Shown here in pieces: positions 1 to 63,439 of a DNA stretch of 64,000 nucleotides. The position numbers and the translations under genes were made by a program. Each line of letters starts with the position of its first letter. Within the stretch, counting starts at the first letter, position 1. Origin of the DNA: Chloroflexota bacterium (GTDB lineage Bacteria > Chloroflexota > UBA11872 > VXOZ01); contig OY760183.1 of assembly GCA_963663275.1 (NCBI GenBank), positions 896,001-960,000 on the forward strand, in the 5' to 3' direction. The notes beneath the pieces were generated by a model that saw only the letters and a list, made by a program, of their open reading frames with translations, was not told the origin of the DNA and did not search any database.

Positions 1-429
1 TTTGAGAAACTCGTCGGCGCGCAGCACCCCGCGCAACGGCGTGGCTTCATCTTCCGCCAGCGCCCGCAGCACCGGCAGTTCGGCGTCACCGCCCACCGCC
101 AAGGCCGCGCCGCTATCCCGCGCGTAGTATTCCATTTCGCGCGGCGTGAACTTGAAGTTGAGCGGCAGCGAAACCCCGCCGGCCCGGATCGCGCCCAGAT
201 GCGCCAGCAGCAGCGCCCGCTTGTCCGCCGTGTAGAGGATGACGCGCTCGCCAGCGCGCAAGCCCCGCTGCTCCAAGAAAACCGCCGCCGCCCGCGTCCG
301 CGCGTCCAGTTCTGCATACGTCCACGTCTCACCCCGATACGTCAACGCGGGACGCTGCGCGAATTGGGCGAATGCGTCTTCAAGCTGGTCGCGAAACGGT
401 AGAAACGTCGTGGAAAACTTTGGATTCAT
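1..429 (-). CDS. AMP-binding acyl-CoA synthetase family protein, N-terminal part (truncated by window edge)
   Basis: Not in the ORF track. Manual translation from ATG at 429: MNPKFSTTFLPFRDQLEDAFAQFAQRPALTYRGETWTYAELDARTRAAAVFLEQRGLRAGERVILY...GGVSLPLNFKFTPREMEYYARDSGA, the typical adenylate-forming enzyme N-terminus. Confidence 0.85.
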   Translation of the reverse strand, partial: MNPKFSTTFLPFRDQLEDAFAQFAQRPALTYRGETWTYAELDARTRAAAVFLEQRGLRAGERVILYTADKRALLLAHLGAIRAGGVSLPLNFKFTPREMEYYARDSGAALAVGGDAELPVLRALAEDEATPLRGVLRADEFLK

Positions 430-623
430 GTGCTCTGTTTTCACTTCCAATCTCGTTGTAGCCCATGGCACACTTAGCCTCTTGGATTGCCAAGGGTTTC
501 CTGACAACCACCAAGAAGTGATGTTTCGGTAGGGCCTGCTTCATGGCCAGTGAAGTGTCGTGCATTCGAAGAGTCTGCTAACATTTTTAACTACGGGGGT
601 ATTCCAAAGCAAGTGAGGAATCT

Positions 624-2387
624 ATGAACTCTGGTGGTACGATTACATCTGTCCGGTTTACAAACTTCAAAGCTTTCGCGAACTTTTCAATCTCGCTTGA
701 CCGAATGAATATCCTTGTCGGTCCGAACAACTCAGGGAAGTCTACTGTGATTGGCGCATTTCGAGTCCTTGCTATGGGACTAAGAACAGCAGCCAGACGC
801 AAACCGGAATTCTTCGGAGGCCGGCACATTGCGCGGGGTTACAGAATACCCAGAGCCTCGATTCCCATTTCCTTGGAAAATGCACAGACTGATTACCAAG
901 ATGTAGAAGCTACAGTCACTTTTAGGATATCAAATGGAAACAGTCTGCAACTGTCGTTTTCTAGTGAAGGCGACGATTGCTTCTTGTACCCGCTTACTGC
1001 TGAAGGAGAACCAGTGACCAAGGCCAAATTCAGCCGACAGTTTCCGATTTCTCTGCTGGTTGTACCTGTGCTCGGCCCTGTTGAACATGAAGAGCCAATC
1101 GTAAAGAAAGAGACAGTGGATAAGAACCTGGCGACACACCGGGCTTCACGCAATTTCCGCAACTACTGGTACCACTATCCCAATGAATTTGCAGACTTCC
1201 GGAAGCAGGTTACAGCCACTTGGCCCGGCATGGAGATTGGACCTCCAGAGTCAGACGGTCAAAAGCTGGCCATGTTTTGCTATGAAGACACGATCGCTCG
1301 AGAGCTCTATTGGACTGGCTATGGCTTTCAGGTTTGGTGCCAGTTGCTTTCACACATCTTTAGAAGCCAGGATCGATCAATGCTCATAATTGATGAGCCG
1401 GACATCTACTTGCATGCTAACCCACAAAGACAATTGCTATCAATATTGAAGGCATCTGGGCAAGACGTGCTGGTGGCGACTCACTCAACTGAAATCATAA
1501 CCGAGGCAGACACCAACGACATTCTAGTGATTGACAAAACTCAACGTTCAGCGAAGAGAGTACGTAGTCCTAAAGGGATTCAGTCCACGCTGGGATCACT
1601 AGGGTCTACGCACATGGTGACGATGAGCGCGATTGCGCAGGCCAGACGAGTCCTCTATGTTGAGGGCGAGGACTTCAAGACTCTAAGGAAGTTTGCTAGG
1701 TGCCTTGGTTTGAGCGAGCTAGCTGCTGGTGTTGGTATTGCACCGTTTCCTCTCGGCGGCTTCCCCTCAGTAGAACGCATAAAGGCGGCCACTCTGGGCG
1801 TTAAGGAATCTATTGGGGGCTCAATAGTCTTCGGTGGAATCTTTGATCGAGATTTCCGTCCAGATGAGGAAGTTGATGACTTACTGTCGAGGCTTCAAAG
1901 CAAGCTGGAATTGTGCGTGATATTGGAAAGAAAGGAGATTGAGAACTACCTGCTCATTCCACCTGCCTTGGAAAGGACGTTAGCAAGACTCGTAGAGGAA
2001 AGGGCACGGCGCGGTGGTGAGTCTGCAACCGAAGCCAGACCGATTGCCGACATTCTTGAGGAGATTACAGCGCCGATGAAAGCCGACGTTCAGTCCCAGT
2101 TTTTCGCCAAGCGAGGAGAGTACTTGAAACATACTGGTAAGGACCCAAGTACCATTAACCTCGAATCCATTGAAATACTTGAGGGGTACTGGAACGAAGC
2201 CCGATTGCGGCTTCACATTGTGCCGGGGAAAAGGGTTCTGAGCGAACTTTCCTCCCGAGTGCAAGAAGAATACAAGGTGACCCTGACGACGGCGAGGATT
2301 GTAGAAGAATTACGTGACAATGAAATACCGTGGGACCTTCGCCAGACGTTGAAGAAGATTGAGTCGTTTCGGTGTAGCGCTCTTTGA
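624..2387 (+). CDS. ABC-type ATPase + Toprim (OLD-family ATP-dependent nuclease-like)
   Basis: Walker A GPNNSGKS, Walker B LIIDEPDIYLH, H-loop VATHS; Toprim YVEGED, DRD and RKEIENYLL motifs; lower GC than flanks. Confidence 0.85.
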   Translation: MNSGGTITSVRFTNFKAFANFSISLDRMNILVGPNNSGKSTVIGAFRVLAMGLRTAARRKPEFFGGRHIARGYRIPRASIPISLENAQTDYQDVEATVTFRISNGNSLQLSFSSEGDDCFLYPLTAEGEPVTKAKFSRQFPISLLVVPVLGPVEHEEPIVKKETVDKNLATHRASRNFRNYWYHYPNEFADFRKQVTATWPGMEIGPPESDGQKLAMFCYEDTIARELYWTGYGFQVWCQLLSHIFRSQDRSMLIIDEPDIYLHANPQRQLLSILKASGQDVLVATHSTEIITEADTNDILVIDKTQRSAKRVRSPKGIQSTLGSLGSTHMVTMSAIAQARRVLYVEGEDFKTLRKFARCLGLSELAAGVGIAPFPLGGFPSVERIKAATLGVKESIGGSIVFGGIFDRDFRPDEEVDDLLSRLQSKLELCVILERKEIENYLLIPPALERTLARLVEERARRGGESATEARPIADILEEITAPMKADVQSQFFAKRGEYLKHTGKDPSTINLESIEILEGYWNEARLRLHIVPGKRVLSELSSRVQEEYKVTLTTARIVEELRDNEIPWDLRQTLKKIESFRCSAL

Positions 2388-2694
2388 TGTTTGCCAAGAG
2401 TTATTCAACTGCCAAGAAACTGTGGTAGGAGTAACTTTCGAGCGATACCAATTGTGCTGTTCCGCGAAGAGATGGTCGATATAGAAGTCTAGCGTCTGTG
2501 GCTCCGTGTTCGTAAGATCTCTCCTAGCACATCAAGTTGACTTTTCTACCTATGGGAGAGAGACAGCTCTATGACCGCAAATGAGGCGGGAGGGGGCCGA
2601 ATCTCTGTCCGAATTGCCTAAACCGATTTGAAGAAGGCGATCTGCAAAGCGCCTCAAATGATACGAGAGTGCCCGCACCCAGCTAAGCAACGCA

Positions 2695-3288: not shown

Positions 3289-3390
3289 CCGGCGCCTCCT
3301 CCAATGCGTCTTGGGCTGGAAAACCGACACGGCCTGTACCTTCCAGTATAGCACCGCACACTGAACGCTTAGCATGACACGCCCACACGC

Positions 3391-4110: not shown

Positions 4111-4354
4111 ACTCTTTCCTCCGTTTGCGCGCGAACTCTCTCCTTAATCACTGTAGAACGAACGCGCGATTCATGCCAGTTGGCGCGGGGGTGGGGGTAT
4201 CGGTCAAGCGTCTCCTGCCTGCGCGCACGTGCCTCAGTACAGCGGCAGGCGCGGAATTGCTGCGCCGTTGGCTCCCGGCTTGCTATACTACACGCGGGAC
4301 TAATCCGGCAATCACTGAGCCGCAGGCACGAATGGCAACGGGAGCAAGCAGACG

Positions 4355-4906: not shown

Positions 4907-4959
4907 CGGAGCCACCGCAATCAGATTGCCAGAAAATCCAGGAGACACAGGGCCTCGCA

Positions 4960-5748
4960 CTAGGCTTGCGGAGGAGTAGGCAGAGATGACAGCCCTTCAG
5001 TATCTCTGGTCTGATCAAAAAGCTGTCTGAGGTTGTCCTCAATCTCAGCTATGGCTTGCATATGTTCATCCAGATCAGACTTCGTTAACTCTCGCGCAGT
5101 CACTCTGGACTTCTTGGTGCGTTCGACGATTACGACTTGAGTAGGATAGCTGACGTACGCTGGGCTTGTTCGTATTGCATGTTCCAGAGTCCAGACAGCC
5201 GCAAAAACACCTTCGGAAATGCTCGGGAGTCGATCACTCCAGAAAATGTGCCTGAGGAAAGCGAGGAATGGGTCTGCAATAGTCTGGCCGCTGCCAATGG
5301 CAATGAAAGGGAGATCCTCCGATGCTTCCTCTGGCGCACCTTGAGCATCGAATTGGAAGAGACATGGTTTGCCACCACAGGGAAGCCCAACTAGAGTGTG
5401 AGCAAGCGCACTACTCTGCGCAGCCTGCCCAAGAATCTTCTGGGCAATGTCCGCAGCCTGCAGTTCTAGCCCAACATGCTCCCATATCCTGCGCCGTAGC
5501 AGGGCCATGACCTGAGTAGGAGACTTATCACTCAGTTCCTTGTTCCGCCAAAGCTCTTCAACTTCGGCGACAATTCGCTGCCCCAACCCAACGGATCCAG
5601 ATACTCCAACTACGCTCTGTCCACCAACTATGTCTAGCTTCTTGACGGGTTGGCGTATTGTGTTACCAGAGAGACTTCCCAGCGTTGCAGCACCGTCCGC
5701 ACCCAGTACAACTCCATCTTTAGCTTTGATTCCAACGATGAGTGTCAC
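4960..5748 (-). CDS. Proteasome beta-subunit/HslV-like Ntn peptidase
   Basis: A GTG start at 5748 gives (M)TLIVGIKAKDGVVLGADGAAT with N-terminal Thr; later K, GVSGS and IAIGSG motifs of the proteasome-beta fold. Confidence 0.8.
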   Translation of the reverse strand: MTLIVGIKAKDGVVLGADGAATLGSLSGNTIRQPVKKLDIVGGQSVVGVSGSVGLGQRIVAEVEELWRNKELSDKSPTQVMALLRRRIWEHVGLELQAADIAQKILGQAAQSSALAHTLVGLPCGGKPCLFQFDAQGAPEEASEDLPFIAIGSGQTIADPFLAFLRHIFWSDRLPSISEGVFAAVWTLEHAIRTSPAYVSYPTQVVIVERTKKSRVTARELTKSDLDEHMQAIAEIEDNLRQLFDQTRDTEGLSSLPTPPQA

Positions 5749-5753
5749 TAAGA

Positions 5754-6185
5754 TCAACCCTGAAAAACGCTATTTGCTTTGTACTCCGGATAGTTCTCGT
5801 AAATGAACCTTACCAGTTGCGAGAACGACTTGGTCTGTACCCATTCAATGAGCCTGTGCACATACACTTGCACATTCTCAGGCAACTCATCTTGGATCTC
5901 TTTCGCCCGATTCAACCCGTCCGGCCTAATGGAGTATTCCTGCCAGCGGCCAGTCATCGAGGGAACAATAGCCGCAAGTTGCTGACCCGCCAACTCTTCC
6001 GCATCATGGTAGATTGAAGAATCAAAAGGACCATAGTCGTAGGGGACAAAATCATAGTAGCCTTCACCGAGAAGTGTCTCCGGCAGCGTCTTTTCCAGCA
6101 AGAATAATGACTTTTGCAGTTGAACTGGCGTAAGCGCTTCTTCCGTAGAAGCGAGCACCAATAGTAACCAATCCTGCCTACTCAT
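5754..6185 (-). CDS. YwgA/Panacea(SocA)-like winged-helix protein
   Basis: LQKSLFLL...YDFVPYDYGPFDSSIYHD motif; stop lies 5 bp before the peptidase start. Confidence 0.65.
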   Translation of the reverse strand: MSRQDWLLLVLASTEEALTPVQLQKSLFLLEKTLPETLLGEGYYDFVPYDYGPFDSSIYHDAEELAGQQLAAIVPSMTGRWQEYSIRPDGLNRAKEIQDELPENVQVYVHRLIEWVQTKSFSQLVRFIYENYPEYKANSVFQG

Positions 6186-6308
6186 CACTTCTCCCTCATT
6201 CTGACCTGGTTAGGACCGGGACTTACCACGTACCCAAGACAATTCCCTGCAAGTGCTGCAACGACACCTAGTACCATGGTACTTCATCCTGTGTTGTTTT
6301 GAAAATGA

Positions 6309-7262: not shown

Positions 7263-7567
7263 CGTAGAGGTCTCCCCTTGTTCGTCTTTCCAGCGGTTTC
7301 ATGCATCCGGCAGAGCCAAGCGCGCAGCCTGGCGCAACGGTCGCGCCTGTGCCGGCGCCTGGCAGCATAGTATCATGCCTGCGTTGCAGCGATTGTGCAC
7401 TCGTGAGTGTGCACGCGGCCGCCGGCGGGGGGGGGGGGGGCCGCGCGCGAGACTTCACTTTCCCGATGGACGCCGGCGGTTCCGCCCCATCGGCGGATGC
7501 CGGGCGGGTCCGCCAATCCCGCAAGCGCCAAGCGGTCCAATCACCTCGACGGCTGCCCGGCCCCCAA

Positions 7568-7597
7568 TTGACGCTGGCGGGAAAAGCTCCGTATAAT
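7568..7597 (+). promoter_or_regulatory. Sigma70-type promoter for the tRNA pair
   Basis: TTGACG-18 nt-TATAAT about 40 bp upstream of the first tRNA. Confidence 0.75.
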
Positions 7598-7635
7598 GCA
7601 AGAGAGTCACGCGTGGCGCGCACAACGCGTGGCCG

Positions 7636-7708
7636 GGGCCCATAGCTCAGCGGTTAGAGCTGCTCCCTCATAAGGAGAAGGTCCCTGGTTCGAATCCAGG
7701 TGGGCCCA
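7636..7708 (+). tRNA. tRNA with CAT anticodon, probably tRNA-Ile2 (lysidine)
   Basis: GGGCCCA/TGGGCCC acceptor stem, TAGCTCAG...GGTTAGAGC D-arm, CTCATAA loop, GTTCGAATC T-loop; CCA not encoded. The Ile2 versus Met call is inferred. Confidence 0.9.
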
Positions 7709-7766
7709 CTTGTCAATGCCGGCCGCAGAGTCCCCACCGGCCGGCCCGATTGGCACATGCACGCGC

Positions 7767-7841
7767 GGCGGGGTAGCTCAATGGTAGAGCGGGGGACTCA
7801 TAAGCCCTAGGTTGTGAGTTCGATTCTCACCCCCGCCACCA
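7767..7841 (+). tRNA. tRNA-Met (CAT), elongator type
   Basis: GGCGGGG/CCCCGCC acceptor stem, CTCATAA loop, GTTCGATTC, encoded ACCA end. Confidence 0.92.
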
Positions 7842-7949
7842 CACAAACGCAAGAGCATTCCTGAGTAGACACGCTGCCTACCGGCGTGCTTTTGCGGTTA
7901 AATGAGGCTTGTAGCAACGAGAGTCTGTGAAACGTACGAGGGGTACGCC

Positions 7950-8117
7950 ATGGCGAAAGAACCGAACCTCTCGCCAAGCAGGCGCAGAGCGTTGCAAGCT
8001 AAATCCACGCGCAAGCGTTGGGCTTTCGGTCGCTCCCAGGATCCGGCGGACGCGCCTGAACCCCCAAGCACTGTCAAGCCGCCCCCGCCTCCACCCCCGC
8101 CGCCGCGGAAGAAGTAG
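7950..8117 (+). CDS. Small basic Pro-rich hypothetical protein
   Basis: GAGGGG RBS-like sequence before ATG; 55 aa; no family recognised. Confidence 0.35.
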   Translation: MAKEPNLSPSRRRALQAKSTRKRWAFGRSQDPADAPEPPSTVKPPPPPPPPPRKK

Positions 8118-8246
8118 CCTCACCCCGGCGCAGACAGGGGCGCAGTCCTCGCTGAGGGTTCCGATTCCAGCGCCCGCGCTATCCCCGCAGCGCCGTGTAT
8201 CGCGCTATACTGGGTTTATGTGATTAATACTACGATGGAGGCCGCA

Positions 8247-8525
8247 ATGGACGTTAGAGAAGCAGTAAAGTCAGCAAAGCAAAACCTCTTGGAGCTTTTC
8301 AACGAGGAACCGATCAGCTACGTTGGTCTTGAGGAAGTCGACTTTGATGATGAAGCCGTGGAGTGGATAATCACGATTAGTTTTGCGCGGCTCTGGGAAA
8401 CAACACCGCTTCCGTCAGCACTCGGGAAGCCTCCCGAAGATCGACATTACAAGGTCTTTCGAATCAGCGATCTCGATGGGCGAGTAAAGTCTGTTAAGGA
8501 TCGTATACTGACGACGGCTGAATGA
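8247..8525 (+). CDS. Hypothetical protein, putative partner of the PIN toxin
   Basis: GGAGG RBS; acidic LEEVDFDDE...W.ITISF motif; lies directly upstream of the PIN gene. Confidence 0.7.
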   Translation: MDVREAVKSAKQNLLELFNEEPISYVGLEEVDFDDEAVEWIITISFARLWETTPLPSALGKPPEDRHYKVFRISDLDGRVKSVKDRILTTAE

Positions 8526-8535
8526 CCGCGTGCTG

Positions 8536-8991
8536 ATGGCGGAACTCTTCATCGATTCGAACCTGCTGTTGCTCTATGTCGCCGGCAGAACCAGCAGAGA
8601 CATCATTGCCAAACACAAGCGGCTGCGCCGATACACAGCAGCAGACTACGATGCCCTGCTCGCCTATCTTGACGGGTTCGACCGTGTGCTCGTGACGCCG
8701 CACACGCTCGCTGAGACCTCGAACCTGCTGGGGCAACACGGAGAGCCGGAGCGTTCTCGATTATTCGATCAACTGCGGTGCCTTATCCATGAGAGCAAGG
8801 AAGTGGTCGTATCCGGCGCCGACGCAGCCAACAACCGCGCGTTCAAGCGGCTTGGCATCACCGATGCCGCTCTGCTGGAGGTCGTTACAGAGCAGACGCC
8901 CCTGCTTACCGTAGATCTGGATCTATACCACGAGGCGCAACAGCGAGAACCGAATTCGGCGGTAAACTTCAACTACCTGCGGCAACTGTGA
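8536..8991 (+). CDS. PIN-domain ribonuclease
   Basis: FIDSNLL, LAETSNL, GITDAAL and LLTVDLDL acidic PIN motifs. Confidence 0.85.
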   Translation: MAELFIDSNLLLLYVAGRTSRDIIAKHKRLRRYTAADYDALLAYLDGFDRVLVTPHTLAETSNLLGQHGEPERSRLFDQLRCLIHESKEVVVSGADAANNRAFKRLGITDAALLEVVTEQTPLLTVDLDLYHEAQQREPNSAVNFNYLRQL

Positions 8992-9060
8992 CGCAAGATA
9001 GCTGCCTTGGTGATTAGCTATTCTTTCGCTATGACTCGATGTCCCGACGGCTAGAACGGC

Positions 9061-10353
9061 TTATGGCTCGTCAATAAGTGCCTCTCCGCGCCAGACCAGC
9101 GGCTCGCCGGTTTCAGCGTCGACAGTCCCTTCTAGCTTGGGCGGTTTCTTGGGGTCTGCGCGCGCTCCATCTAACTGCATCTGTGTCAGGTTCTTTACTT
9201 CTCCAAGATACGCACCGGATAGATTCGCTCCCATGGAGGCTGGTCTAATCAAAATCGCCCCATCATGCCCGCGGGGAAAGTGTTGCCCTCCAAAGTACGC
9301 GCCACACAGGTTTACTGCCGCAAGATTTGCGCAAGACATGTCCACTCCCGCAAGATTCGCGCTCGCTAGGTTCGCTCTTCCTAGATTTGCGTTAGGCAGA
9401 ATTGCATCCTCAAGCACAGTACGGGACATGTCCGCACCTACGAGGTGCACGTCGGACATATTTGCACTTTCGAGTTCCGCGCGAGACAGGTTAGCATCTG
9501 CGATAAATGCCCCAGACAGATTCGCTCTCTTGAATTGGGCACCAGACAGATCCGTACCCCAACTCCAGATTTCCATGCCTCTGAGGTCGGCATAGCTAAA
9601 GTCTAACTCAAACTCGGCTTCCCTTTCGAGCGCAACACTCGTCTCTTTGCGGACAGCGATCGCCTGCATGACAGCTTGGACATCCTCCCGCAGTGAGAGC
9701 GTTTCTTCAGACGGATCTCCTTTCGCGTTCGCTGTGCTTTTTCTATAGACTTCCTTGGGTGGATGGCGCACGAACGCGCAGAAGAGTCGCATAATCTGGA
9801 TATGGTACTGCTCGGGGTGTTCCTCGGCGAGACGTCGCAGCGCGTAGATGCCGCCTAAGCGTACTGAAAGGACATCATTGCCGAGCATTTCGGCACCCCT
9901 TTGGTAGCGGTCATTCAGTAGGTCCTGCTCCGCAGTCTTAGCCTGTCGCCCTGCGACCCAACTGCGCCAAACAGCGATTAGCAAGGCGACGAAACCTGCG
10001 AACAACAACCCGACATTGCGAAGCGTCGAAGAGTTGGTTTCCTGCCGATCCTGTCCGTTTGGTACGGCGCCCAACCAATCCCAGTACTTGAAAGTGAGCC
10101 AGATAATGACCAAGACAGCGGCTGCAATGAACAGCCACGCGAACCGCCGCAGTGCTTTCCAAGCTAGGGGCAGAACACGAAGACCCCACCGTTTGCCGTG
10201 TCGCCAGTGACCAACAAACTCTGTCCAACCAATACGTATCCAACGCGCTCTAGCCTGGACAAGGGCGAAGACATGCAGAATCCACAGTTTACTACGACGC
10301 CAACGCGCAACGAGCGCTGTCCAGACTCTTCGTATCCAGGTGAATCGGCTCAA
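9061..10353 (-). CDS. Membrane-anchored pentapeptide-repeat protein
   Basis: Two TM segments, RLGGIYALRRLA...LFCAFVR domain, then A(N/D)LSxA repeats. Confidence 0.9.
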   Translation of the reverse strand: MSRFTWIRRVWTALVARWRRSKLWILHVFALVQARARWIRIGWTEFVGHWRHGKRWGLRVLPLAWKALRRFAWLFIAAAVLVIIWLTFKYWDWLGAVPNGQDRQETNSSTLRNVGLLFAGFVALLIAVWRSWVAGRQAKTAEQDLLNDRYQRGAEMLGNDVLSVRLGGIYALRRLAEEHPEQYHIQIMRLFCAFVRHPPKEVYRKSTANAKGDPSEETLSLREDVQAVMQAIAVRKETSVALEREAEFELDFSYADLRGMEIWSWGTDLSGAQFKRANLSGAFIADANLSRAELESANMSDVHLVGADMSRTVLEDAILPNANLGRANLASANLAGVDMSCANLAAVNLCGAYFGGQHFPRGHDGAILIRPASMGANLSGAYLGEVKNLTQMQLDGARADPKKPPKLEGTVDAETGEPLVWRGEALIDEP

Positions 10354-10377
10354 TCCTCACCTCGCTGTGTCACCATC

Positions 10378-10477
10378 AGTATTGTCCCGATGCGTCTGGC
10401 GATTTCGGTGACGTGTTGCACCTCTTCCGGGGGTGAGGGGGGGCAGTGGAGGATGGTGTGTTCGCGGTAGGAGGGCC
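10378..10477 (-). pseudogene. Degenerate duplicate of the 3' end of the R-M gene (11577..11673)
   Basis: Translates SYREHTILHCPPSPPEEVQHVTEIARRIGTIL versus SYREHPILNRPLTPEEVQHFTDTARRIAAIL; the DNA is directly alignable. Confidence 0.85.
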
Positions 10478-10594
10478 GAATTTGAGCGGCGTGGCGAGTG
10501 CTAAACAAGTCGAATGCTGTCTGGCACCGTAGCAAGGGGGGCATGGCAACTCACCTGACTTGCCAGTGGCAGCCTTGGGGGGACCTTTGAGGGG

Positions 10595-11029
10595 TCAATT
10601 GGCGCTTACTTCAACCTTTTCCTCTGCTGTTTCTTCAGCCTGAAGTACTTGGACAACCGGATCCCCCTCTTTCACGTAGCTATCTTTCTCTTCTGGGTGC
10701 TCCCAGTCTCTTTCCTCTCTCCTAAGCGGCAGGTACTTCTCTCTCCATGCCAGTGGCATAAGCGATTCAGAGAAACTGAAGCCGCGTCTCTCTGTACTTG
10801 TAGAGGCGAGAGCCAGCTTTTCCTGCACTCTCGTCACGCGCACTCTCACTTTTGGACGTCGAATAGACCCCAACCACTCACCAGTGTCGGGGTCACTAAT
10901 GTCTTCACTCTTCGCGTCCAGGACGTCAAAGTACATGCCGACTTCAACGCCATCATTCATTCCCACATTTAGTGCGACTTCCCGCGTATTGAGCACCCGC
11001 GCGACTTTCCCACGAATCTGGTCAGCCAT
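10595..11029 (-). CDS. Hypothetical protein resembling the FlgT C-terminal beta domain
   Basis: VALNVGMNDGVEVGMYFDV...DPDTGEWLG...VRVTRVQEKLA pattern. Confidence 0.6.
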   Translation of the reverse strand: MADQIRGKVARVLNTREVALNVGMNDGVEVGMYFDVLDAKSEDISDPDTGEWLGSIRRPKVRVRVTRVQEKLALASTSTERRGFSFSESLMPLAWREKYLPLRREERDWEHPEEKDSYVKEGDPVVQVLQAEETAEEKVEVSAN

Positions 11030-11032
11030 ATA

Positions 11033-11479
11033 CTACCCCTCCTGCTCATCAGGCGGACGATCGATAGTTCGTGTAAGCTCTGTCACGGAATCCGGCACCA
11101 CGTCTTGCCAATCTGCCAATGCGTCGTCCGCAGTGGAGATGTGTTCGACCACGATCGCCTCGATTATCTTCAGCTTCACTGCGTCATCCTCAGTGCCTAC
11201 TATGGTCTCAGCAACCCGCGACAATCCGTCATACAAAGAACGAAGGCGTCGAAATGCGGAGCGCGCATGTGGCTCGATCATCTCTCTCGCGGCAGCCCTG
11301 GCCGATTGACGACCGAAGATGAAAGAACCGGTGAGTCCCGTGGCTAGAGCAAAGATCTGAAAGAGGGCATTTTCCAAGTTGGTCAGTGTACGTGATGATG
11401 CCAGAAAGACAAAGACAAAAGCTACGGCTACGCTTACCACGACGAGCACTAGTGGCCCAAAGCGTTCAAGGTACTTCAT
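11033..11479 (-). CDS. Two-TM hypothetical membrane protein
   Basis: Two N-terminal hydrophobic helices and a helical soluble tail; ends 3 bp before the downstream gene. Confidence 0.7.
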   Translation of the reverse strand: MKYLERFGPLVLVVVSVAVAFVFVFLASSRTLTNLENALFQIFALATGLTGSFIFGRQSARAAAREMIEPHARSAFRRLRSLYDGLSRVAETIVGTEDDAVKLKIIEAIVVEHISTADDALADWQDVVPDSVTELTRTIDRPPDEQEG

Positions 11480-11554
11480 ACTCTATCATCGATTCCAATC
11501 AACATGCCCGCTCCTTCCAAGGCTTCTCCTGATGTAGTTCCGCACACCATATCT

Positions 11555-15409: not shown

Positions 15410-15635
15410 AGGCTTTGCCCAGGCACGGTGACGCTCCGATTGCTGCGGCTATCCCATACGCACGTATTGTACAGCGATATCCACGTTTGCGGCGCGGTTT
15501 GGCGCTATGTGGTATAGATTAGATTGGTTTGGCGGTTGCGCATGGGGCCGGCATTGCGGTTGATAGGTTGGCCGGTTCCGGGGCGCGGCTTAAACGAAGC
15601 AATGGTGAAGCGCACAATCAAGGAGAAGGAGTCTC

Positions 15636-16577: not shown

Positions 16578-16655
16578 GCAGACACGATGGGGCGTGGCGG
16601 GTGGTAGAATGGAATCAAGGCAACCCGGTAGTTTGGAAAGCGAGCGTGAACCCTC

Positions 16656-42978: not shown

Positions 42979-48747
<5,769 letters not shown>

Positions 48748-56421: not shown

Positions 56422-57597
56422 ATGGATGAAATTCGCATCGGCCTGGTCGGACTCGGTCATCGCGGCCTGCACTGGCTGCGCATCCTGGAACGCATCGAGG
56501 GCTACCGCGTCACGGCGCTGTGCGATCCGATCGCCGCGCTGCACCAACGCGCGCTGGACGCCCTGGAGTCCCGCGATGGCGTGAACGCCTACGCCAACTA
56601 CGAAGACATGCTGGGCGATTCCCGCGTGGACGCGGTGGCCGTGACCGTGCGCTGCCGGGAGCAAGGCGCGCTGGCGGCCATGGCGCTGGAGGCCGGCAAG
56701 CACGTGAATAGCGAGGTGCCGGCGGCGCACACCCTGGAGGATTGCTGGCGCATCGTGCTGGCGCAGGAGCGGTCGGGCCTGGTCTACCAGCTTGGCGAGC
56801 AGACCCGCTTCTGGGGCTACATCGACGCCTGGCGGGACCTCGTGCAGGCGGGTCGGCTGGGCCGCGTCACGTTCTGCGAGGGGCAGTACATCGGCTACTA
56901 CGGCACGCGCCAGTTCTTCCAGAATCCCGCTTCAGGCGAGTTTGCGGCGGTGGAAGACCTGCCGGACAAGCCGGACGCGCGGCCGACCTGGCTCCACACC
57001 ATGCCGCCGATTCATTACCTGCCCCACGAACTCAGCCCGCTCCTGAAAGTGCTGGACGACCGGGTGGTGAGCGTGACCGCCATGAGCACCGGCGCGCCCA
57101 GCTACTCGCACCCGGAGATCGGCCAGCCGGACGTGCAGGCGGCGCTGATGAAAACGGAAAAAGACGCCATCCTGCGGCTGGTCTGCGGCTTCACCCAGCC
57201 GGTCTCCCACGGCATGGGCCACCACTGGTTCCATATCGCGGGCACGAACGGGGTGCTGGAATGGAAGCGCAGCGGCGGCGGCAAACCGCTGATGTGGCTG
57301 GCCGACGGCCAGATGCACGACATGGCGGAGATGGACTGGGGCCACGCCCGCACCGACGCGCCACCCGCCGCCCGCGGCAGCGGCCACGGCGACGCCGACT
57401 ACTACGTCCACGCGTCCTTCCGCGACGCCGTCCTCGGCAAAACCCCACTCGAATTCGACGTCTACCAAGCCATCGACACCGCCGCCCCCGCCATCCTCGC
57501 CGCCGACTCGATAGAACAGGGGACTACGCTGCTGGAGGTCCCCAACTTCCGCCCGGGCCCAGAGCGGCAGAAAGGCGAAATGCCTAGCAAAGAGTGA
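56422..57597 (+). CDS. Gfo/Idh/MocA family oxidoreductase
   Basis: IGLVGLGHRG, AGKHVNSEVP and GHGDAD motifs. Confidence 0.9.
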   Translation: MDEIRIGLVGLGHRGLHWLRILERIEGYRVTALCDPIAALHQRALDALESRDGVNAYANYEDMLGDSRVDAVAVTVRCREQGALAAMALEAGKHVNSEVPAAHTLEDCWRIVLAQERSGLVYQLGEQTRFWGYIDAWRDLVQAGRLGRVTFCEGQYIGYYGTRQFFQNPASGEFAAVEDLPDKPDARPTWLHTMPPIHYLPHELSPLLKVLDDRVVSVTAMSTGAPSYSHPEIGQPDVQAALMKTEKDAILRLVCGFTQPVSHGMGHHWFHIAGTNGVLEWKRSGGGKPLMWLADGQMHDMAEMDWGHARTDAPPAARGSGHGDADYYVHASFRDAVLGKTPLEFDVYQAIDTAAPAILAADSIEQGTTLLEVPNFRPGPERQKGEMPSKE

Positions 57598-57806
57598 TAG
57601 GCAAGTGGATGCAGAATGTGCCTTCAGTCCAACGGGCGCATTTTGCAGCGCGGGACTGGCAGGCAATATACTGACGTAGTAGGCGTGAAGCGAGCAAAGA
57701 GCAGCGTGCGCTTGATATTCTCTTGAGACCACGCATCGACAGTGGCTGGATTGTCACCGGTCTCTCTTCAAAAACCTATCAAGTTTCGCGCGTGAGGAGA
57801 CGTCGC

Positions 57807-58721
57807 TTGAGCGTTCCACACCCGATACCGTATCAGGGCAGCAAGCGGTCGATCGCGCGGTTCATCTTGCCGTATTTTCCCGCAGACGACTCAAACGTGA
57901 GACTGATAGAGCCTTTTGCGGGTTCAGCGGCTATATCGCTAGCGGCGGCGCATGACCGCAAGGCGCAAGACATCGTGCTCAACGATGTCAACAGCGCCCT
58001 CATGAGCCTGTGGGAGGAGATACTGTTGCGCCCCGATGCGCTGGCAGATCGGTATGAAGAGTTTTGGCATGCCCAGCTTGGACGTGAGAGAGAATACTAC
58101 AATCGCATTCGAAGCAGGTTCAATGAGTCTCCCAGTCCGGACTGCTTCCTGTACCTGCTTGCTCGCTGCGTGAAAGCCTCCATACGCTACAACGCGAATG
58201 GAGAGTTCAATCAAAGCCCCGACAACCGCAGAAAGGGCGCTCATCCCGCAACCATGCGACGGCACCTGATCGGCGCTTCGTTGCTGCTTAACGGTAGGAC
58301 GGCTCTTACATGCGGTGACTATCGAGAAGTGCTTGGCAACCTCTTGCCTTCAGATCTTGTCTACATGGATCCCCCTTATCAAGGGGTGTCCAATGACCGC
58401 GATCCGCGTTACGTGGAGGGCATTGATCGGGATGAGTTCATAGAGACGTTGAGCAACCTCAATCGGCGAGAGACCTCGTACATCGTCAGCTACGACGGTA
58501 GAAGTAGCGAAAAGAGTTACGGCGAAATACTGCCGAAATCCTTGCGGTTGACGCGCCTGGAGATCGATGCCGGCCGGTCGTCTCAGGGAACGCTGCTCGG
58601 CAGAGCGACGAAGACGTATGAGTCGCTCTACTTATCACCCGCCTTGTTCAACAGAATTGACATCACCGCATCCAGCCAACCACAGGCTTTTTCTAAGCAA
58701 CTTTCCTTGTCAGGAAGTTGA
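57807..58721 (+). CDS. Dam-like (D12 class) N6-adenine DNA methyltransferase
   Basis: TTG start after GAGGAG; PYQGSKR, EPFAGS and YMDPPY motifs. Confidence 0.92.
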   Translation: MSVPHPIPYQGSKRSIARFILPYFPADDSNVRLIEPFAGSAAISLAAAHDRKAQDIVLNDVNSALMSLWEEILLRPDALADRYEEFWHAQLGREREYYNRIRSRFNESPSPDCFLYLLARCVKASIRYNANGEFNQSPDNRRKGAHPATMRRHLIGASLLLNGRTALTCGDYREVLGNLLPSDLVYMDPPYQGVSNDRDPRYVEGIDRDEFIETLSNLNRRETSYIVSYDGRSSEKSYGEILPKSLRLTRLEIDAGRSSQGTLLGRATKTYESLYLSPALFNRIDITASSQPQAFSKQLSLSGS

Positions 58722-58722
58722 G

Positions 58723-59460
58723 ATGCCGGATACAGATTACCCGAAAGCGTTTCTCGAGCGGCTCAAGTCGGTCACGGGCAGACGTGCGAGAACCGTAATC
58801 GACCACATTCTTGAGCATGGACACATCACAACCGAAGAACTAGAGGTTCTCTACGGCTATAACCATCCGCCGCGAGCGGCCCGCGACGTGCGCGAGAACG
58901 GTATCCCGCTTGAGACGTTCTACGTGCAAAACTCAGAGGGGCAAAGAATAGCCGCATATCGCTTTGGGGACCTTGGGCTCCTTGAAGCAGGAAAACTCGG
59001 CGGTCGCAGAACTTTCTCAAAGGAATTTAAGGATAGGCTTCTTGAAGAGAATGAGAACAGGTGCGCCATTTGTCTGGAAAAGTATGAATCAAGATACCTG
59101 CAAATAGACCATCGGATTCCTTTCGAGGTGGTCGGAGATTCCGATGCGGAGGAGAGACAGGCGGATGCATACATGCTGGTGTGCGGTTCCTGCAACCGAG
59201 CAAAGTCATGGTCGTGCGAGCATTGCGATAACTGGCGAACCATAAAGAAGCCGGACAACTGCGCTTCTTGCTATTGGGCCAGCCCTGAATCGTACTCCCA
59301 CGTGGCGCTTGAAGCGGATCGCAGGATCGATATTGCCTGGAAGGGAGACGAGGTTGATGACTTTGACCGCACTTCCCAAATTGCCGAGAAAGAGGGAGTG
59401 ACGACGCCGGAATATGTGAAGAAGATCATCAGAGAGCATGTTGGCAAGCGTAAAGCGTGA
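58723..59460 (+). CDS. HNH endonuclease, probable type II restriction enzyme paired with the MTase
   Basis: CAIC...QIDHRIP...CGSCNRAK; extra CxxC pairs; N-terminal HTH-like region; 1 bp after the MTase stop. Confidence 0.85.
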   Translation: MPDTDYPKAFLERLKSVTGRRARTVIDHILEHGHITTEELEVLYGYNHPPRAARDVRENGIPLETFYVQNSEGQRIAAYRFGDLGLLEAGKLGGRRTFSKEFKDRLLEENENRCAICLEKYESRYLQIDHRIPFEVVGDSDAEERQADAYMLVCGSCNRAKSWSCEHCDNWRTIKKPDNCASCYWASPESYSHVALEADRRIDIAWKGDEVDDFDRTSQIAEKEGVTTPEYVKKIIREHVGKRKA

Positions 59461-59609
59461 TCCCAGGCTTTCCGGTGCTGTCACACTCGTGCCATTGTCG
59501 CTCGCAATGCCTGTCCCGTCCCCAACTTCTGTCACGGCGATAAGCGTAGGAAGAAGCACTGCCAAGGATAGCGCGATTTGAAACGGTAGGTTTGGTCATT
59601 TATACAAGT

Positions 59610-60071
59610 CTATGTATTAGAATTGACCGTCACTGGTTCTTTGCTTGCGCGCCGTACGATTTGCCGAAACGCTTCGTGCTCTTCAGTCTTGAGGTATCGC
59701 CAAGACTGAGGGACAACAAAACTGTCAAAGAGTTCGCGTAGCACACTAAGCCCAATTGGTTCCTCGTATTCCCAGACATCTTTGATTTCCAAAGCGTGCG
59801 CAGTGGACTGTCCCTCGAAGTAGGTATCGAAGTCCTCCTTGTCAATTGCCGCAAGACCATGTACGCTTCGCCAAACTTCCTCTGGTGGTCCTGACCACAC
59901 TTGCCCCACTCGAAAACCTCCGCGCAGTTCCATAGTTGGACTGGAAACGTAAATGAACACATAGCTGTTCTCTATCTGGGACACAATACGACGCCGGAGT
60001 TCGACCTTCTTCTCGCCTTCGAACACTAGGTCGGCATAGTGTGGCTTTAGAGAGATGAATAGTGGTCTCAT
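59610..60071 (-). CDS. ASCH-domain protein
   Basis: ISLKPHYADLVFEGEKKVELRR...YVSSP...PQSWRYL. Confidence 0.9.
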   Translation of the reverse strand: MRPLFISLKPHYADLVFEGEKKVELRRRIVSQIENSYVFIYVSSPTMELRGGFRVGQVWSGPPEEVWRSVHGLAAIDKEDFDTYFEGQSTAHALEIKDVWEYEEPIGLSVLRELFDSFVVPQSWRYLKTEEHEAFRQIVRRASKEPVTVNSNT

Positions 60072-60078
60072 TGTGGTG

Positions 60079-62091
60079 CTAGTGGTGCGGATACCCTAAC
60101 TGAAACAACTCTTGGAAGATTTCCGGTGACATTTTTGATGGCCCTTGCAGGTTTACACCTCTTCCATGACCTTCGTAGACCGCTCTGATCCTGCTTAACG
60201 GAATTCGTTCTCGAAAGAGGAACGTGTGAGAGAATTGAAGCGCCATCAGTTTTGTTGACATATTACGATTACACATCTCATAGAGGTTATTCCATTCAAG
60301 CACACCGAATCTCTTGAATCTCCTCCAAAGTTCTTTGGGTGTGTCTATCGTAACTTGGTCAAGGCGAGACACGGCAATTACTTGCTTTTGATCGCTTACG
60401 TACCAGAGAAGGCGTGCTGGGGGTCTAAGCATCCTATGGAATGTATTCGCGCGATAGTAAACGTTGCTCCAACGCAGCAATACGGTAATGTCTGCTCCGA
60501 AGAGATCATTAGCTGACCGCTGTCTGTCAAATAAGTGGAGTGCATAAGCGGGGCGGATTGGTATAAGGAAGTGGTTCTGCTCTAGGGCAAGAGACAAGGG
60601 TGAGCAATGTGTTTCTAGCTCCAAGTCACACATTGCTTCGTATTCTGTTCTTGATTCTGGTGAAAGTTCTGCAATCCGCTCCAGTGCCTCAGAACGGCTT
60701 AGGGAGCTTGAGAAGCAGAACCTTACGAGTCCATCGGCACGTGAAGTAAAACCCATCTCCAAGAGTTCTGGCATTAGGAAGGGTGAGACTGACGATGCAC
60801 TAACTTCAACAACATCCTGATTCAATTCCACGGCCTTGGCAAGAGTATCTGCAATCAAGAATCTACCGAAAAGAGTTCGGTTCGTCGAATTCGCTACTCT
60901 GGCCAGGGGTAAGCTAATGGTCCCAGGTGAGTCATTCCGTATGGTTCGGACGATGGCAACATCGTCACCATCTTTCAGCAACTCGCACGTATAACGATCA
61001 GGACTGGCGAGGAAGCGTCCCAAGACCTCCCTAAATCTTCGTTGCTGTTCTCCTTCATTGAGAAAAGAGTCGTGCGGAAAAGAGCGAAAGTCCTCTTGCT
61101 TGAAGCGATGCCATCCAAGACGAAGACCGGCGACTCGGTCAGGACTGTAGGACTGCGCTTCAGTAAGCTGGTGCATCTGGACTATCAACTCGGTTGGAGA
61201 CAGAACCTGGAGGTTTACTAAGTGAGCGATTGCTGGCGCTTTTTTCAACAAGCCTTGATCCCTGGTGACAAAGATGTTCACGTCGGAAGCGGCTGCCTTT
61301 GCCAAATGCCTGATGTCGGATTCTCGACTGGGGTTGTTGCTGGGCAGGACTTGCTTCAAACGGTTAGCACAGTACTCGACCATGTCCAGCTTTGGCTGAA
61401 CTTGCAGGAACTTTTCAGTTCTTGCTCGGTTTAGACCTCTCTGTTCAGGGTCGTCATTGCGATCAATCTCGTTGAGTAACTCATCGGTGATGCAAAGGTT
61501 TAGTGAATCGATCAGGAAGTCAGCAAGCAGCGCCTTAGATGTCGCTGTCTCTCCACTGTCCGGCTCGAAAAAGTGGTAGAACACTTGGGCGTCGATGATG
61601 ACGTCAAGAGCCTCGTCTGAAGTCTGCGCCTTGAACAACTCTAATTCCGGCTGATGATCTGAATGTAAGGCGAGATGCCAATGTGTCAAAAGGTGTCCAG
61701 CCATGGAACGCCCTGGCTTCTCGCCAATAGCTACAAAGCCCAATTTCGGCCACATGTCATTTGCAGGAAAGTCGCGACGGCAATTAAGATCTATGGCGGT
61801 TTGCGTATTGGCGGAGTCCTTTAGCCTCTCAAGGAGTTGCCTCGCGATACCCCTGCCTCTGAAATCTTCCGATACACAGAGTTGTGTAATGCGAAAACGT
61901 TGAGAATTGGACCAGTAGAGAAGGTAACCAGCTAGATTATCGTCAACCTTAGCGCCCAGCACGCCGCCCCTATCCAGGTGATCACGGAGAGCTTCAGCCG
62001 GCAGAAAGCCGAGAGTCTGGCTGTGGCGCTTCATTAGGGTATCTACCGCAGCCAGGTCGGCGATCGTTAGCTTTGAGAACCCTACTTGCAT
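60079..62091 (-). CDS. GNAT + PIN + C-terminal ASCH/EVE(PUA)-like multidomain protein
   Basis: GNAT LCVSEDFRGRGIARQLL...AN.MW.KLGF; PIN IIDAQV...NEI...DIRHLA...FVTRD; C-terminal LIPIRPAYALHLF...NVYYR...LLWYVS. Confidence 0.8.
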   Translation of the reverse strand: MQVGFSKLTIADLAAVDTLMKRHSQTLGFLPAEALRDHLDRGGVLGAKVDDNLAGYLLYWSNSQRFRITQLCVSEDFRGRGIARQLLERLKDSANTQTAIDLNCRRDFPANDMWPKLGFVAIGEKPGRSMAGHLLTHWHLALHSDHQPELELFKAQTSDEALDVIIDAQVFYHFFEPDSGETATSKALLADFLIDSLNLCITDELLNEIDRNDDPEQRGLNRARTEKFLQVQPKLDMVEYCANRLKQVLPSNNPSRESDIRHLAKAAASDVNIFVTRDQGLLKKAPAIAHLVNLQVLSPTELIVQMHQLTEAQSYSPDRVAGLRLGWHRFKQEDFRSFPHDSFLNEGEQQRRFREVLGRFLASPDRYTCELLKDGDDVAIVRTIRNDSPGTISLPLARVANSTNRTLFGRFLIADTLAKAVELNQDVVEVSASSVSPFLMPELLEMGFTSRADGLVRFCFSSSLSRSEALERIAELSPESRTEYEAMCDLELETHCSPLSLALEQNHFLIPIRPAYALHLFDRQRSANDLFGADITVLLRWSNVYYRANTFHRMLRPPARLLWYVSDQKQVIAVSRLDQVTIDTPKELWRRFKRFGVLEWNNLYEMCNRNMSTKLMALQFSHTFLFRERIPLSRIRAVYEGHGRGVNLQGPSKMSPEIFQELFQLGYPHH

Positions 62092-62224
62092 ATCACCCTA
62101 GTTTCTGTTCACCCTATACGCATGAATGTAGCGACCATGTATTCGCTATTATGCCCCATTCAACCGCTTTGTACTGCTGCATCAAGGTCTAGGACTACAC
62201 TTCCATTGGGGTTCTCTTGCAAAC

Positions 62225-63439
62225 TCAATCGGCCACCTTACCAAATCTCCGTTTGCCGACTTGGAAGATTTGGCCCGCTTTGGGGGTGTAGGGGGTGTTG
62301 GTGTCGGTGACGCGGGTGTTGTCCAGGCGGACGGCGCCTTGTTGGACCAGGCGGCGGGCTTCGGAGCGGCTTTTCGCGAGGTTAGTGGCGATAAGGGCGT
62401 CCACGATGGTTTGGGACTGGAGCAGGGCGTCGTTTAGGGGGATTTCCGGGATGTCGGTTGGTAAAGCGCCCTGGCGGAACATGCGGATGAACTCGGCCTC
62501 GGCGGACTCAGCGGCGGCGGCATCGTGGAACTGGGTCACGATTTCGCGGGCGAGTTGGGCTTTCACGTCGCGGGGATTCTTTTTCTCCGCAGCCATCTCC
62601 GCAAACATCTCATCCAGCGAAGCCATAGGAATGTCCGTCAGCGTCTCGAAGTAGGCGCGCATCACGTCGTCGGAGAGCGACATCACCTTGCCGTACATGT
62701 CGTGCGGCGGGTCGGTGATCGCCACGTAGTTATCGTAGCTCTTGCTCATCTTGCGCGTGCCGTCGGTGCCCACCAGCAGCGGCCAAGTGAGGAACTGCTG
62801 CGGCGGCAGGCCGTGGGCGGGCATGATGTCGCGGGCCACCTGGAAGTTGAAATACTGGTCGGTGCCGCCCAGTTCCACGTCGGCCTCGATGGCCACCGAA
62901 TCGTACGCTTGCAGCAGGGGATATAAAAATTCCACCACGGAGACGGCTTGGCCGCCGCCGTAGCGGGTGGCGAAGTCGTCGCGGTCCAGCATACGGTTCA
63001 CCGTGTACTTGGCGCAGAGGCGCACCACGTCTTCCAGGGCGAAATCCTCGAACCACGCGGTCTGCCAGGCGATTTCCAGCTTGTCCACGTCCACGATTTT
63101 GCCCATCTGGTCCAGATACGTCTGGGCGTTGGCCTGCACCTCAGCGGCGCTGAGCATCTGGCGCGTGGCGGAGCGGCCCGACGGATCGCCGATGCGGGCG
63201 GTCCAGTCGCCGATGATGATGATCACGCGATGCCCCAACGCCTGGAACTGCCGGATTTTGCGGAAGCCCACCGCGTGGCCCAGGTGCAGGTCGGGCCGGC
63301 TGGGGTCCACGCCGAACTTGATGCGCAGGGGCTTGCCCGCCCGCAGCATGCGTTCCAGGTCGTCCCGCACCACCGCGTCCACCACGCCGCGGCTCAGCAG
63401 GGTTTGCAGGGCCGCCTCCGAAGTCTGTACCGTCGCCAT
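62225..63439 (-). CDS. tyrS: Tyrosine--tRNA ligase
   Basis: GVDPSRPDLHLGH, YPLLQAYD, GGTDQ, KMSKS and a C-terminal S4 domain. Confidence 0.97.
   Translation of the reverse strand: MATVQTSEAALQTLLSRGVVDAVVRDDLERMLRAGKPLRIKFGVDPSRPDLHLGHAVGFRKIRQFQALGHRVIIIIGDWTARIGDPSGRSATRQMLSAAEVQANAQTYLDQMGKIVDVDKLEIAWQTAWFEDFALEDVVRLCAKYTVNRMLDRDDFATRYGGGQAVSVVEFLYPLLQAYDSVAIEADVELGGTDQYFNFQVARDIMPAHGLPPQQFLTWPLLVGTDGTRKMSKSYDNYVAITDPPHDMYGKVMSLSDDVMRAYFETLTDIPMASLDEMFAEMAAEKKNPRDVKAQLAREIVTQFHDAAAAESAEAEFIRMFRQGALPTDIPEIPLNDALLQSQTIVDALIATNLAKSRSEARRLVQQGAVRLDNTRVTDTNTPYTPKAGQIFQVGKRRFGKVAD

Follow-up and report, generated by a model that had tools for sequence, protein, structure and literature searches.

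In the genome of a Chloroflexota bacterium, labelled G000 here, core genes that border islets of low guanine-plus-cytosine (GC) content carry a conspicuous stretch at the bordering gene end: over the last 100-300 bases almost every codon ends in C or A when read on the strand that points towards the islet. We refer to these stretches as arms and describe them both in a 64,000-nucleotide window (the whole stretch of DNA that was analysed, bases 896001-960000 of the single-contig 3.53-Mb genome with 64% GC) and across the genome, with about 16 species of the same genus as comparison set. Genome-wide and beyond chance, the skew is tied to the side on which the islet lies and to its orientation. 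Our best explanation, which we hold with evenly balanced confidence, is that the arms supply the homology at hotspots where cassettes are exchanged without an integrase, and that transmission or repair in heteroduplex DNA is biased in a strand-specific way.

For the skew scan, about 2,340 called genes were searched for segments by log-likelihood (odds ratio 12, score cut-off >=12), with conditioning on the amino acid, and compared with a null in which third positions were resampled from the per-amino-acid usage of the genome. All genome-wide counts are based on gene calls from a crude, purpose-made codon-model caller that misses low-GC genes. The scan returned 53 segments with C/A third positions against 0 in the null and 31 G/T segments against 2, and the two classes occupy opposite gene ends. 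Among the 53 C/A segments, 35 terminate no more than 25 codons from the stop and 3 begin near the start codon; among the 31 G/T segments, none lies near a stop and 15 begin within 25 codons of the start codon, as in a sulfatase gene whose Pfam match starts at residue 5. Since the scan was conditioned on the amino acid, neither amino-acid composition nor signal peptides can be behind the G/T patches at 5' ends. A codon-phase-free scan at the nucleotide level recovered mostly low-complexity proteins and was of no use. A preliminary description of this DNA, made before the present analysis, had named an equal skew at all gene 3' ends as the observation that would speak against it; among 1,902 genes, however, the share of third positions with C or A is 0.53 on average and at most 0.56 at 20-40 codons before the stop, so that a general property of gene 3' ends can be rejected. 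A repeated 367-codon gene accounts for three of the 31 G/T segments with its copies at 381711-382814, 1098025-1099128 and 3018030-3019133 of the genome, which have a common G/T stretch at codons 12-133; it has a very low host-codon score and is probably an insertion sequence.

At four-fold degenerate sites of the 3' arms C reaches 0.855, with G at 0.09, A at 0.04 and T at 0.015, compared with 0.455 for C and 0.427 for G in the genome; two-fold pyrimidine sites carry C at 0.984 (genome 0.791) and two-fold purine sites A at 0.772 (genome 0.321). The 5' arms are the exact complement, with G at 0.689 of the four-fold sites, T at 0.681 of the two-fold pyrimidine sites and G at 0.967 of the two-fold purine sites. 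Expressed as odds ratios, the bias amounts to about 7 for A over G and about 16 for C over T, and first and second codon positions within the arms are shifted by a few percent in the same direction as the third. At both kinds of gene end, the C/A-rich strand is the one that leaves the gene 5' to 3'. Because the 5' arms complement the 3' arms, the same strand-specific pressure acts whichever strand codes, and for the same reason foreign codon usage of a donor lineage is rejected as the source. With respect to replication, the C/A-rich arm strand is lagging at 37 sites and leading at 20 (genes overall 48:52), which is a mild bias.

The skew also has a characteristic shape. Its excess is maximal at a distance of 20-50 codons from the end of the gene, has disappeared at about 90-100 codons and is zero within the final 10 codons. 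Expressed as (C-G)/(C+G), it climbs to +0.38, starting from 0 at -350 nt and peaking at -50 nt, as a gradient towards the junction, and drops abruptly 30-50 nt inside the gene end, the last 50 nt having a GC of 0.59 compared with 0.67 before; in the untranslated region (UTR) and the cargo the skew is about 0 over 600 nt beyond the gene end. This agrees with the earlier suggestion that the last codons are islet-like and that the junctions lie inside gene termini. Besides, the final 3-8 codons of two genes considered below, tyrS and the Gfo/Idh/MocA oxidoreductase gene (Gfo), vary with the cargo type, which places the junction inside the gene ends. A search for a skewed oligomer similar to Chi or to the FtsK-orienting polar sequences (KOPS) gave no convincing candidate, the best being GTCGGTGT (182 vs 69), and CACCGACACC, common to the tyrS arm and the arm of a restriction-modification (R-M) gene, shows no enrichment at gene termini (a stop lies within 300 nt for 7 of its 21 sense copies, 26% expected).

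The link to low-GC DNA is equally directional. Within 1.5 kb past the stop, median GC is 0.583 for genes with a 3' arm and 0.646 for others (p=9e-11), with no difference on their upstream side (p=0.56); genes with a 5' arm have lower GC upstream (0.603 vs 0.647, p=4e-4) and no difference downstream (p=0.97). Sorted into six bins of rising neighbour GC, the fraction of genes with a strong 3' arm runs 25%, 22%, 3.9%, 1.2%, 0.4% and 0.8%. We then considered 155 islets, defined as gaps of at least 700 bp with GC <0.60 between host-like genes, and scored the inward skew of the adjoining 60 codons. It exceeds z=2 at 39% of 3'-facing and 25% of 5'-facing islet ends, compared with 8.7% at short gaps (n=993), and the reverse skew (z below -2) occurs at 1.3% of islet ends vs 5% at short gaps. 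Of these islets, 22 have skew on both flanks, 56 on one and 77 on none, and left and right flanks are correlated (rho 0.28, p=4e-4). C/A and G/T patches both face low-GC DNA, so polarity is set by the islet and not by transcription, as the preliminary description had proposed. The idea that cargo genes are always co-directional with the C/A strand had to be rejected (31 co-directional vs 26 opposite).

Within the window, the strong arms are those of the Type ISP R-M gene, tyrS and Gfo (Table 1). The R-M arm had been described before with the very coordinates that the scan returned for its best segment; its 68 codons include as G-ending ones only three TGG and one CCG, and no codon ends in T. 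For tyrS and Gfo, arms had been placed at 62250..62470 and 57345..57510, and the scan recovered both with the slightly different bounds given in the table. The Gfo arm is followed by about 30 tail codons without skew. Three further examples were less convincing: the 5' end of the AMP-binding gene at 1..360 (z=1.5) and the ends of the HD (z=1.3) and OCD (z=0.0 and 1.1) genes are individually non-significant, so that half of the six examples stand as strong arms and half are weak. Correspondingly, the inward skew of the flanks is weak at the OLD islet (z=1.5 and 1.1) and not significant at the islet between HD and OCD (z=1.3 and 0.0).

The R-M gene contains a second, weaker C/A segment, and an unskewed stretch that varies in the population splits the two. 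Contigs of runs X1, X2, X3 and X6 aligned to window positions 1-20000 gave fragmentary cover, and in contigs of X1, X3 and X6 the 165 nt at 11783-11947 are swapped for 18 other nt (joint 11782->11948). This stretch, exactly between both C/A segments, may be a population-polymorphic in-frame insertion. At the OLD islet, positions 668-2668 have no cover in the X2 and X6 contigs; a bridging contig is absent, so we make no claim on this site. The longest and strongest C/A stretch of the window (45339..46811) is distinct from the islet arms: it is the Thr-Pro linker of a secreted surface protein of 1,922 aa (42979-48747, + strand) with long (TP)n / PT-linker runs, where about 460 codons all have C or A in third position and the GC skew reaches -0.28 and the AT skew +0.71 at 45-46 kb.

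Table 1. Arms, islets, cargo and repeats, in window coordinates unless G000 is stated (LLR, log-likelihood ratio; ORF, open reading frame)
Feature	Coordinates	Strand	Evidence or property
Islet with OLD-like AAA_21/AAA_15 ATPase (624..2387)	508..2694	.	GC 0.49
Islet between HD and OCD genes, proteasome-like ORF and 144-aa ORF	4907..6308	.	GC 0.51
Low-GC islet downstream of R-M gene	7263..11554	.	GC 0.57
Displaced direct repeat of R-M 3' end	10390..10477	(-)	85% identity, 88 bp
Type ISP R-M gene	11555..15409	(-)	Pfam Type_ISP_C/N6_Mtase
Unskewed lower-GC tail codons of R-M gene, junction zone within gene terminus	11555..11596	(-)	sequence
C/A arm, final part of R-M gene	11597..11800	(-)	LLR 36.0, z=6.5
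Second, weaker C/A segment of R-M gene	11936..12205	(-)	LLR 22.1
C/A arm, 3' end of Gfo/Idh/MocA oxidoreductase gene (56422..57597)	57334..57507	(+)	LLR 24.1, z=3.9
Cargo islet Gfo-tyrS	57598..62224	.	GC 0.51
Dam-like methyltransferase in Gfo-tyrS islet	57723..58721		
HNH protein in Gfo-tyrS islet	58567..59460		
ASCH-like ORF in Gfo-tyrS islet	59610..60071	(-)	
GNAT protein in Gfo-tyrS islet	60079..62091	(-)	670 aa
C/A arm, 3' end of tyrS (62225..63439)	62252..62464	(-)	LLR 19.4, z=5.5
MITE-like repeat 1 (locus L139, about 640-870)	G000 669850-670080		
MITE-like repeat 2 (locus L144, about 706-874)	G000 1085680-1085850		

The cargo of the islets in the window consists of the OLD-like ATPase, the Dam-type methylase with HNH protein, the GNAT and ASCH-like proteins, the proteasome-like ORF, a pentapeptide-repeat gene and ORFs without known family. 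The islet downstream of the R-M gene holds small ORFs of the latter kind together with the pentapeptide-repeat gene (9061..10353, - strand). We also scanned 19 cargo ORFs that adjoin strong arms elsewhere in the genome. Defence-like among them are two TIR-domain proteins, a HATPase_c_3 protein, a methylase-HNH fusion, a DEAD/MZB helicase and an AAA_21 ATPase; others belong to the TPR, LRR and PQQ-propeller families, to the HAD hydrolases or, in four cases, to the PD40 repeat proteins, and five have no family. Further islets hold Fic/DOC in one case and HNH with AbiU2 in another. None of the 35 cargo ORFs compared with Pfam, a scan whose coverage excludes small ORFs and the remaining islets, has an integrase, transposase or recombinase domain.

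In all 12 relatives in which we looked at the locus, Gfo and tyrS are convergent neighbours, with 1.95-6 kb of intervening DNA, and among 13 genomes this interval holds at least six unrelated sets of cargo genes. Different cargo at the same junctions had been expected from the outset. Both arms are kept in 13 of 13 congeneric genomes, and the tyrS arm is found in all 14 copies of the gene (G000 and 13 relatives), where it occurs as two allele types that do not follow the cargo. Other arm sites behave similarly: a convergent pair with facing arms, separated by 193 bp in G000, has insertions of 0.97-2.8 kb in 8 of 16 relatives, and a second arm site ranges from 280 to 4,061 bp, with insertions of at least 1 kb in 7 of 15 relatives.

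Some of the cassettes lie between direct repeats of a gene end. In two relatives (G015 and G001), a 1.36-kb insert with a single gene lies between the intact tyrS and a displaced copy of its last ~158 bp, which starts at the same codon in both genomes, directly after the stop codon of the insert. The single ORF of the G015 insert encodes 388 aa with an HELAHL motif; from its sequence, we read this protein as ImmA/IrrE-like with an N-terminal helix-turn-helix. The attached and the displaced arm of G015 are of different allele types (83.4% identity), and the displaced one is nearest to arms of other species (90.5%), which indicates that a foreign arm arrived with the cassette. In G000, gene-end direct repeats surround cassettes at the R-M gene and at four other sites, one of them a 5' end; they measure 74-204 bp, are 83-96% identical, have sharp borders and terminate at or just past the stop codon. 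At the R-M gene, the displaced repeat and the intact gene end enclose a two-ORF cassette (10595..11029 and 11033..11479). The preliminary statement that no integrase, transposase or att repeat is visible therefore stands in its first part only, as the R-M repeat and its counterparts are att-like. Most arm-flanked islets nevertheless have no displaced repeat. In the relative G006, near position 372708-372923 of contig C1, a control site without arms has a 3.6-kb insertion with a partial second copy of the right-hand flanking gene end; the displaced repeat here occurs at a site that is armless in G000.

Variation among the relatives suggests that the bias operated during divergence of the genus. 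At Gfo and tyrS codons whose amino acid does not vary in the 13 genomes, sites with a G/T majority have 80 minor alleles at 25 sites in the arms (3.2 per site) and 281 at 163 sites in the gene bodies (1.72), while sites with a C/A majority have 75 at 87 sites in the arms (0.86) and 339 at 197 sites in the bodies (1.72). The excess of minor alleles at G/T sites of the arms points to a push towards C/A in that period, with the reservation that the genomes compared are kin.

In the samples tested, the pattern is confined to this genus. We compared C/A segments scoring at least 10, using one pipeline on partial-genome samples. Two 400-kb slices of G000 contain 14 and 6 segments, 13 and 4 of them near a stop; 482 kb of a genome from another family (G017) contain none, hence none near a stop, and 400 kb from a third family (G021) contain 5, none near a stop. 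Low-GC windows make up 3 of 399 in the latter sample. ComEC and DprA are present in all three genomes of the genus that were checked and MutS1 and MutS2 in all five genomes searched for them, while RecC was found in none of five; a canonical NucS/EndoMS was not shown, the nearest match being a DUF7226+NucS_C protein. A Rho gene is present.

A DNA-level process centred on the junction fits these data best, because the arms are complementary at the two gene ends, ramp up to the junction, are independent of gene orientation and move with cassettes. From what is directly observed, namely the pattern with its polarity and ramp, the link to variable islets, the transfer of an arm with its cassette and the cargo without integrases, we infer recombination as the cause and, further, the nature of the bias. 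Cargo, made up of defence genes and repeat proteins of eukaryote-like type, would be gained, lost and replaced between conserved gene ends by homologous recombination of the host, probably preceded by natural transformation. The 100-300 bp of core gene that adjoin the junction would most often be drawn into heteroduplex with a foreign allele, and on the strand running 5' to 3' into the cargo a bias in this heteroduplex would favour C against both G and T, and A against G. Many rounds of exchange could then push synonymous sites near saturation and create mirror arms irrespective of gene orientation.

We would most readily place the source of such a bias in the surveillance of mismatches. If strand exchange proceeds 5' to 3' along the donor strand and stalls at heterology, junction-proximal heteroduplex would carry the inward-pointing donor strand. 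A donor C or A would give poorly recognised mismatches (C.C, C.A, A.C) and a donor G or T the best recognised ones (G.T, G.G), so that MutS-dependent rejection would spare C/A-rich arms. MutS of E. coli ranks mismatches as G.T > G.G > A.C >> C.C. On this account, the inward strand should prefer C to G, A to G and C to T, and the ramp should rise to the junction, as seen. In pneumococcus, as far as the available part of the report goes, recovery of markers is about 4-fold higher when they lie 5' of a heterology on the donor strand (PMC4824099), and mismatch surveillance depends on the mismatch type, according to the accessible text of another study (PMC3375284). Taken one step further, the arms could reflect a new evolutionary force, a strand-polar "mismatch-stealth" drive that pushes the entering strand towards C and A as the bases whose mismatches are worst seen by MutS-type surveillance. 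We put this forward tentatively and consider it doubtful. If true, the arms would be near-universal, repair-evading docking sequences in synonymous sites of core genes, and defence and symbiosis cargo could cross species boundaries within the genus without an integrase.

Several points weigh against cassette exchange by recombination with a strand bias. Recombination is deduced, no event having been directly observed, and 77 of the 155 islets are armless (z<=2 on both sides). Arms at 3' ends have twice the strength of those at 5' ends, a difference not predicted by a process that acts on DNA alone. A third arm site is filled in only 1 of 15 relatives, and armless sites vary as well: one convergent control has insertions of 1.3-3.6 kb in 4 of 16 relatives and another control is about 1 kb longer in 14 of 16. 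Small-scale content variation is thus common in the genus, also at armless sites, and the comparison does not show that arms predict hotspots. All genomes compared are uncultured metagenome-assembled genomes of one genus and hence not independent. The third-family genome has ComEC, DprA and MutS, yet no terminal arms in a 400-kb sample with few islets. The A-over-G and C-over-T components of the bias need a G.T >> A.C asymmetry, as known for MutS of E. coli. Pneumococcus speaks against it, since both transition mismatches are low-efficiency markers there, judging from the portion available (PMC3375284), and transformation of B. subtilis is described as non-polar in the accessible part of the source (PMC4824099).

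The main rival to recombination concerns transcription. The arms could be Rho rut-like insulators, in which C-rich, G/U-poor RNA entering the islet loads Rho and stops transcription from running in, on either side, to cargo that is foreign and often toxic. The C/A state would be kept by selection at hotspots of long standing, or else cargo would last only beside such sites. The C>G bubble is indeed extreme and rut-like, both in the (C-G)/(C+G) maximum and in the four-fold sites, such RNA would be unable to self-fold, and the genome encodes Rho. Arms are stronger at 3' ends, where sense transcripts occur, persist at a site that is empty in G000, and the bias is maintained across the genus. However, it is translated sequence that carries the skew, which breaks off 30-50 nt ahead of the stop and does not extend into the UTR behind it, where Rho would have its best loading zone; and where a 5' end faces the islet, RNA rich in C/A would be the antisense transcript of the host gene. 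The depletion of T (98.4% C at two-fold pyrimidine sites) is no requirement of Rho, a rut site would not ramp towards a DNA junction, and several arms lie between co-directional host genes, where polarity would be costly. For these reasons we regard Rho insulation as unlikely; if it is true, it would mean codon-level selection for transcriptional insulation of foreign DNA, which would likewise be new.

The gene-end direct repeats raise the question of site-specific or Campbell-type integration of small circular cassettes that bear the target gene end, moved by RecA or by a trans-acting recombinase, with the arms as att-like homology recoded on the element. The repeats at tyrS in the two relatives, at the R-M gene and at four sites of G000 are in line with it, and so is the position of the newest cassette beside the intact gene, like tandem accretion at tRNA genes. 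We still consider it quite improbable: no recombinase-type domain was found in the 35 cargo ORFs, most arm-flanked islets lack a displaced repeat, no motif common to the arms was found, and the opposite skews at 3' and 5' targets are left unexplained; moreover, transformation too can yield such duplications, as stated in the available part of a report (PMC3784515). Least convincing is a purely mutational footprint, by which repeated exposure of single-stranded DNA in resection or uptake would be followed by base damage or error-prone fill-in. A mirror-image strand asymmetry around break hotspots gives a precedent, at least in the part of the study available (PMC7615360), and both the gradient towards the junction and the slight shift of first and second codon positions agree with mutation. 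On the other hand, a break at the islet exposes an inward 3' tail, in which the known damage depletes C and A, the opposite of the polarity found here, as far as the same partial source tells (PMC7615360); the right polarity needs incoming linear-fragment tails that end less than ~300 bp from the cargo, which is contrived. Besides, RecC was found in none of five genomes, near-saturation with a conserved protein of the essential tyrS would need a very high and local rate, and four-fold sites go to C and not to A, so that transitions alone are insufficient. We therefore rate a mutational origin as very unlikely. Of the initial proposal, strand-specific exchange with biased mutagenesis, the islet-keyed polarity and the swap of cargo hold, whereas biased mutagenesis of single-stranded DNA is not established and has the damage polarity of break hotspots against it; a bias of transmission or repair in heteroduplex would account for the data at least equally well.

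Apart from the arms, the window contains dispersed repeats. An intergenic hairpin repeat at 17860-18096 and 53379-53399 has about 244 copies in G000 and many in each genome of the genus. Its conserved loop of ~21 nt lies between CCGTTCAT and GAACGG, the longer stems vary in sequence by copy, and copies are often inverted pairs ~68 bp apart. We rejected it as a recombination site, as it is absent from the islet junctions of the window. Two unlike repeats of ~150-210 bp, similar to miniature inverted-repeat transposable elements (MITE), occur in intergenic spacers of G000, each with at least 20 copies of 78-96% identity (Table 1).

Integrase-free hotspots hold much of the turnover of bacterial defence and accessory genes, and both the route of entry and the reason why certain gene ends serve as sites are still argued indirectly. 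A sharp, oriented and nearly saturated synonymous footprint at the junction would be a readable scar of the exchange that tells the strand involved, the reach of the tract (~300 bp) and the position of the junction inside the gene end. It raises the testable questions whether heteroduplex beside heterology is strand-polar in vivo and whether mismatch surveillance shapes the flanks, and it gives a simple sequence signature for locating hotspots, including empty ones, in uncultured genomes. Such hotspots are already known; the footprint itself appears to be undescribed, as a literature search gave no strand-polar synonymous skew flanking islands.

Among known systems, rut sites share with the arms a C-rich, G-poor and unstructured stretch of 80-300 nt at gene ends; unlike rut sites, the arms are translated, end before the stop, are mirrored in antisense at gene 5' ends and ramp towards a DNA junction. 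Integration at gene 3' ends with a replacement end and att direct repeats is well known from tRNA-gene islands and from phage 21 and e14 in icd. These elements resemble our sites in the duplicated gene end, the newest insert beside the intact gene and a gene that is still functional, but here no integrase was found in the cargo scanned, the repeats have diverged and differ in length, 5' ends serve as targets as well and most islets are free of repeats. Core defence hotspots of P. aeruginosa are reportedly a related example of the same flanks with differing cargo.

Strand-asymmetric mutation at meiotic break hotspots, as described in the accessible part of the study (Hinch et al. 2023, PMC7615360), and GC-biased gene conversion likewise show a mirror image centred on a recombination site that decays with distance. 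Unlike the damage at a central break reported there, the inward strand of the arms is enriched in C/A, and in contrast to both phenomena the axis of the arms is a keto/amino skew, not GC content, with near-saturation within ~300 bp. Pneumococcal transformation supplies both ingredients of the proposed mechanism, donor-strand polarity by heterology and mismatch-type-dependent rejection, insofar as the available portions of the reports go (PMC3375284, PMC4824099); different from the arms, it has no reported evolutionary footprint of this kind as far as our literature search goes, and its transition mismatches, both low-efficiency markers, are unlike the bias required here (PMC3375284). Of the systems described, the one closest to the arms is the hotspot that lacks mobile elements, which, according to the part of the report available, diversifies through double recombination at the core genes that flank it (PMC5635113). 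Both share a constant pair of core genes, varying accessory and defence cargo, the lack of an integrase or transposase and signs of exchange in the flanks. A strand-polar synonymous skew of the flanks is not mentioned in that part of the report (PMC5635113), and unlike those hotspots the arms described here have their junctions inside gene termini, with some cassettes bracketed by gene-end repeats.

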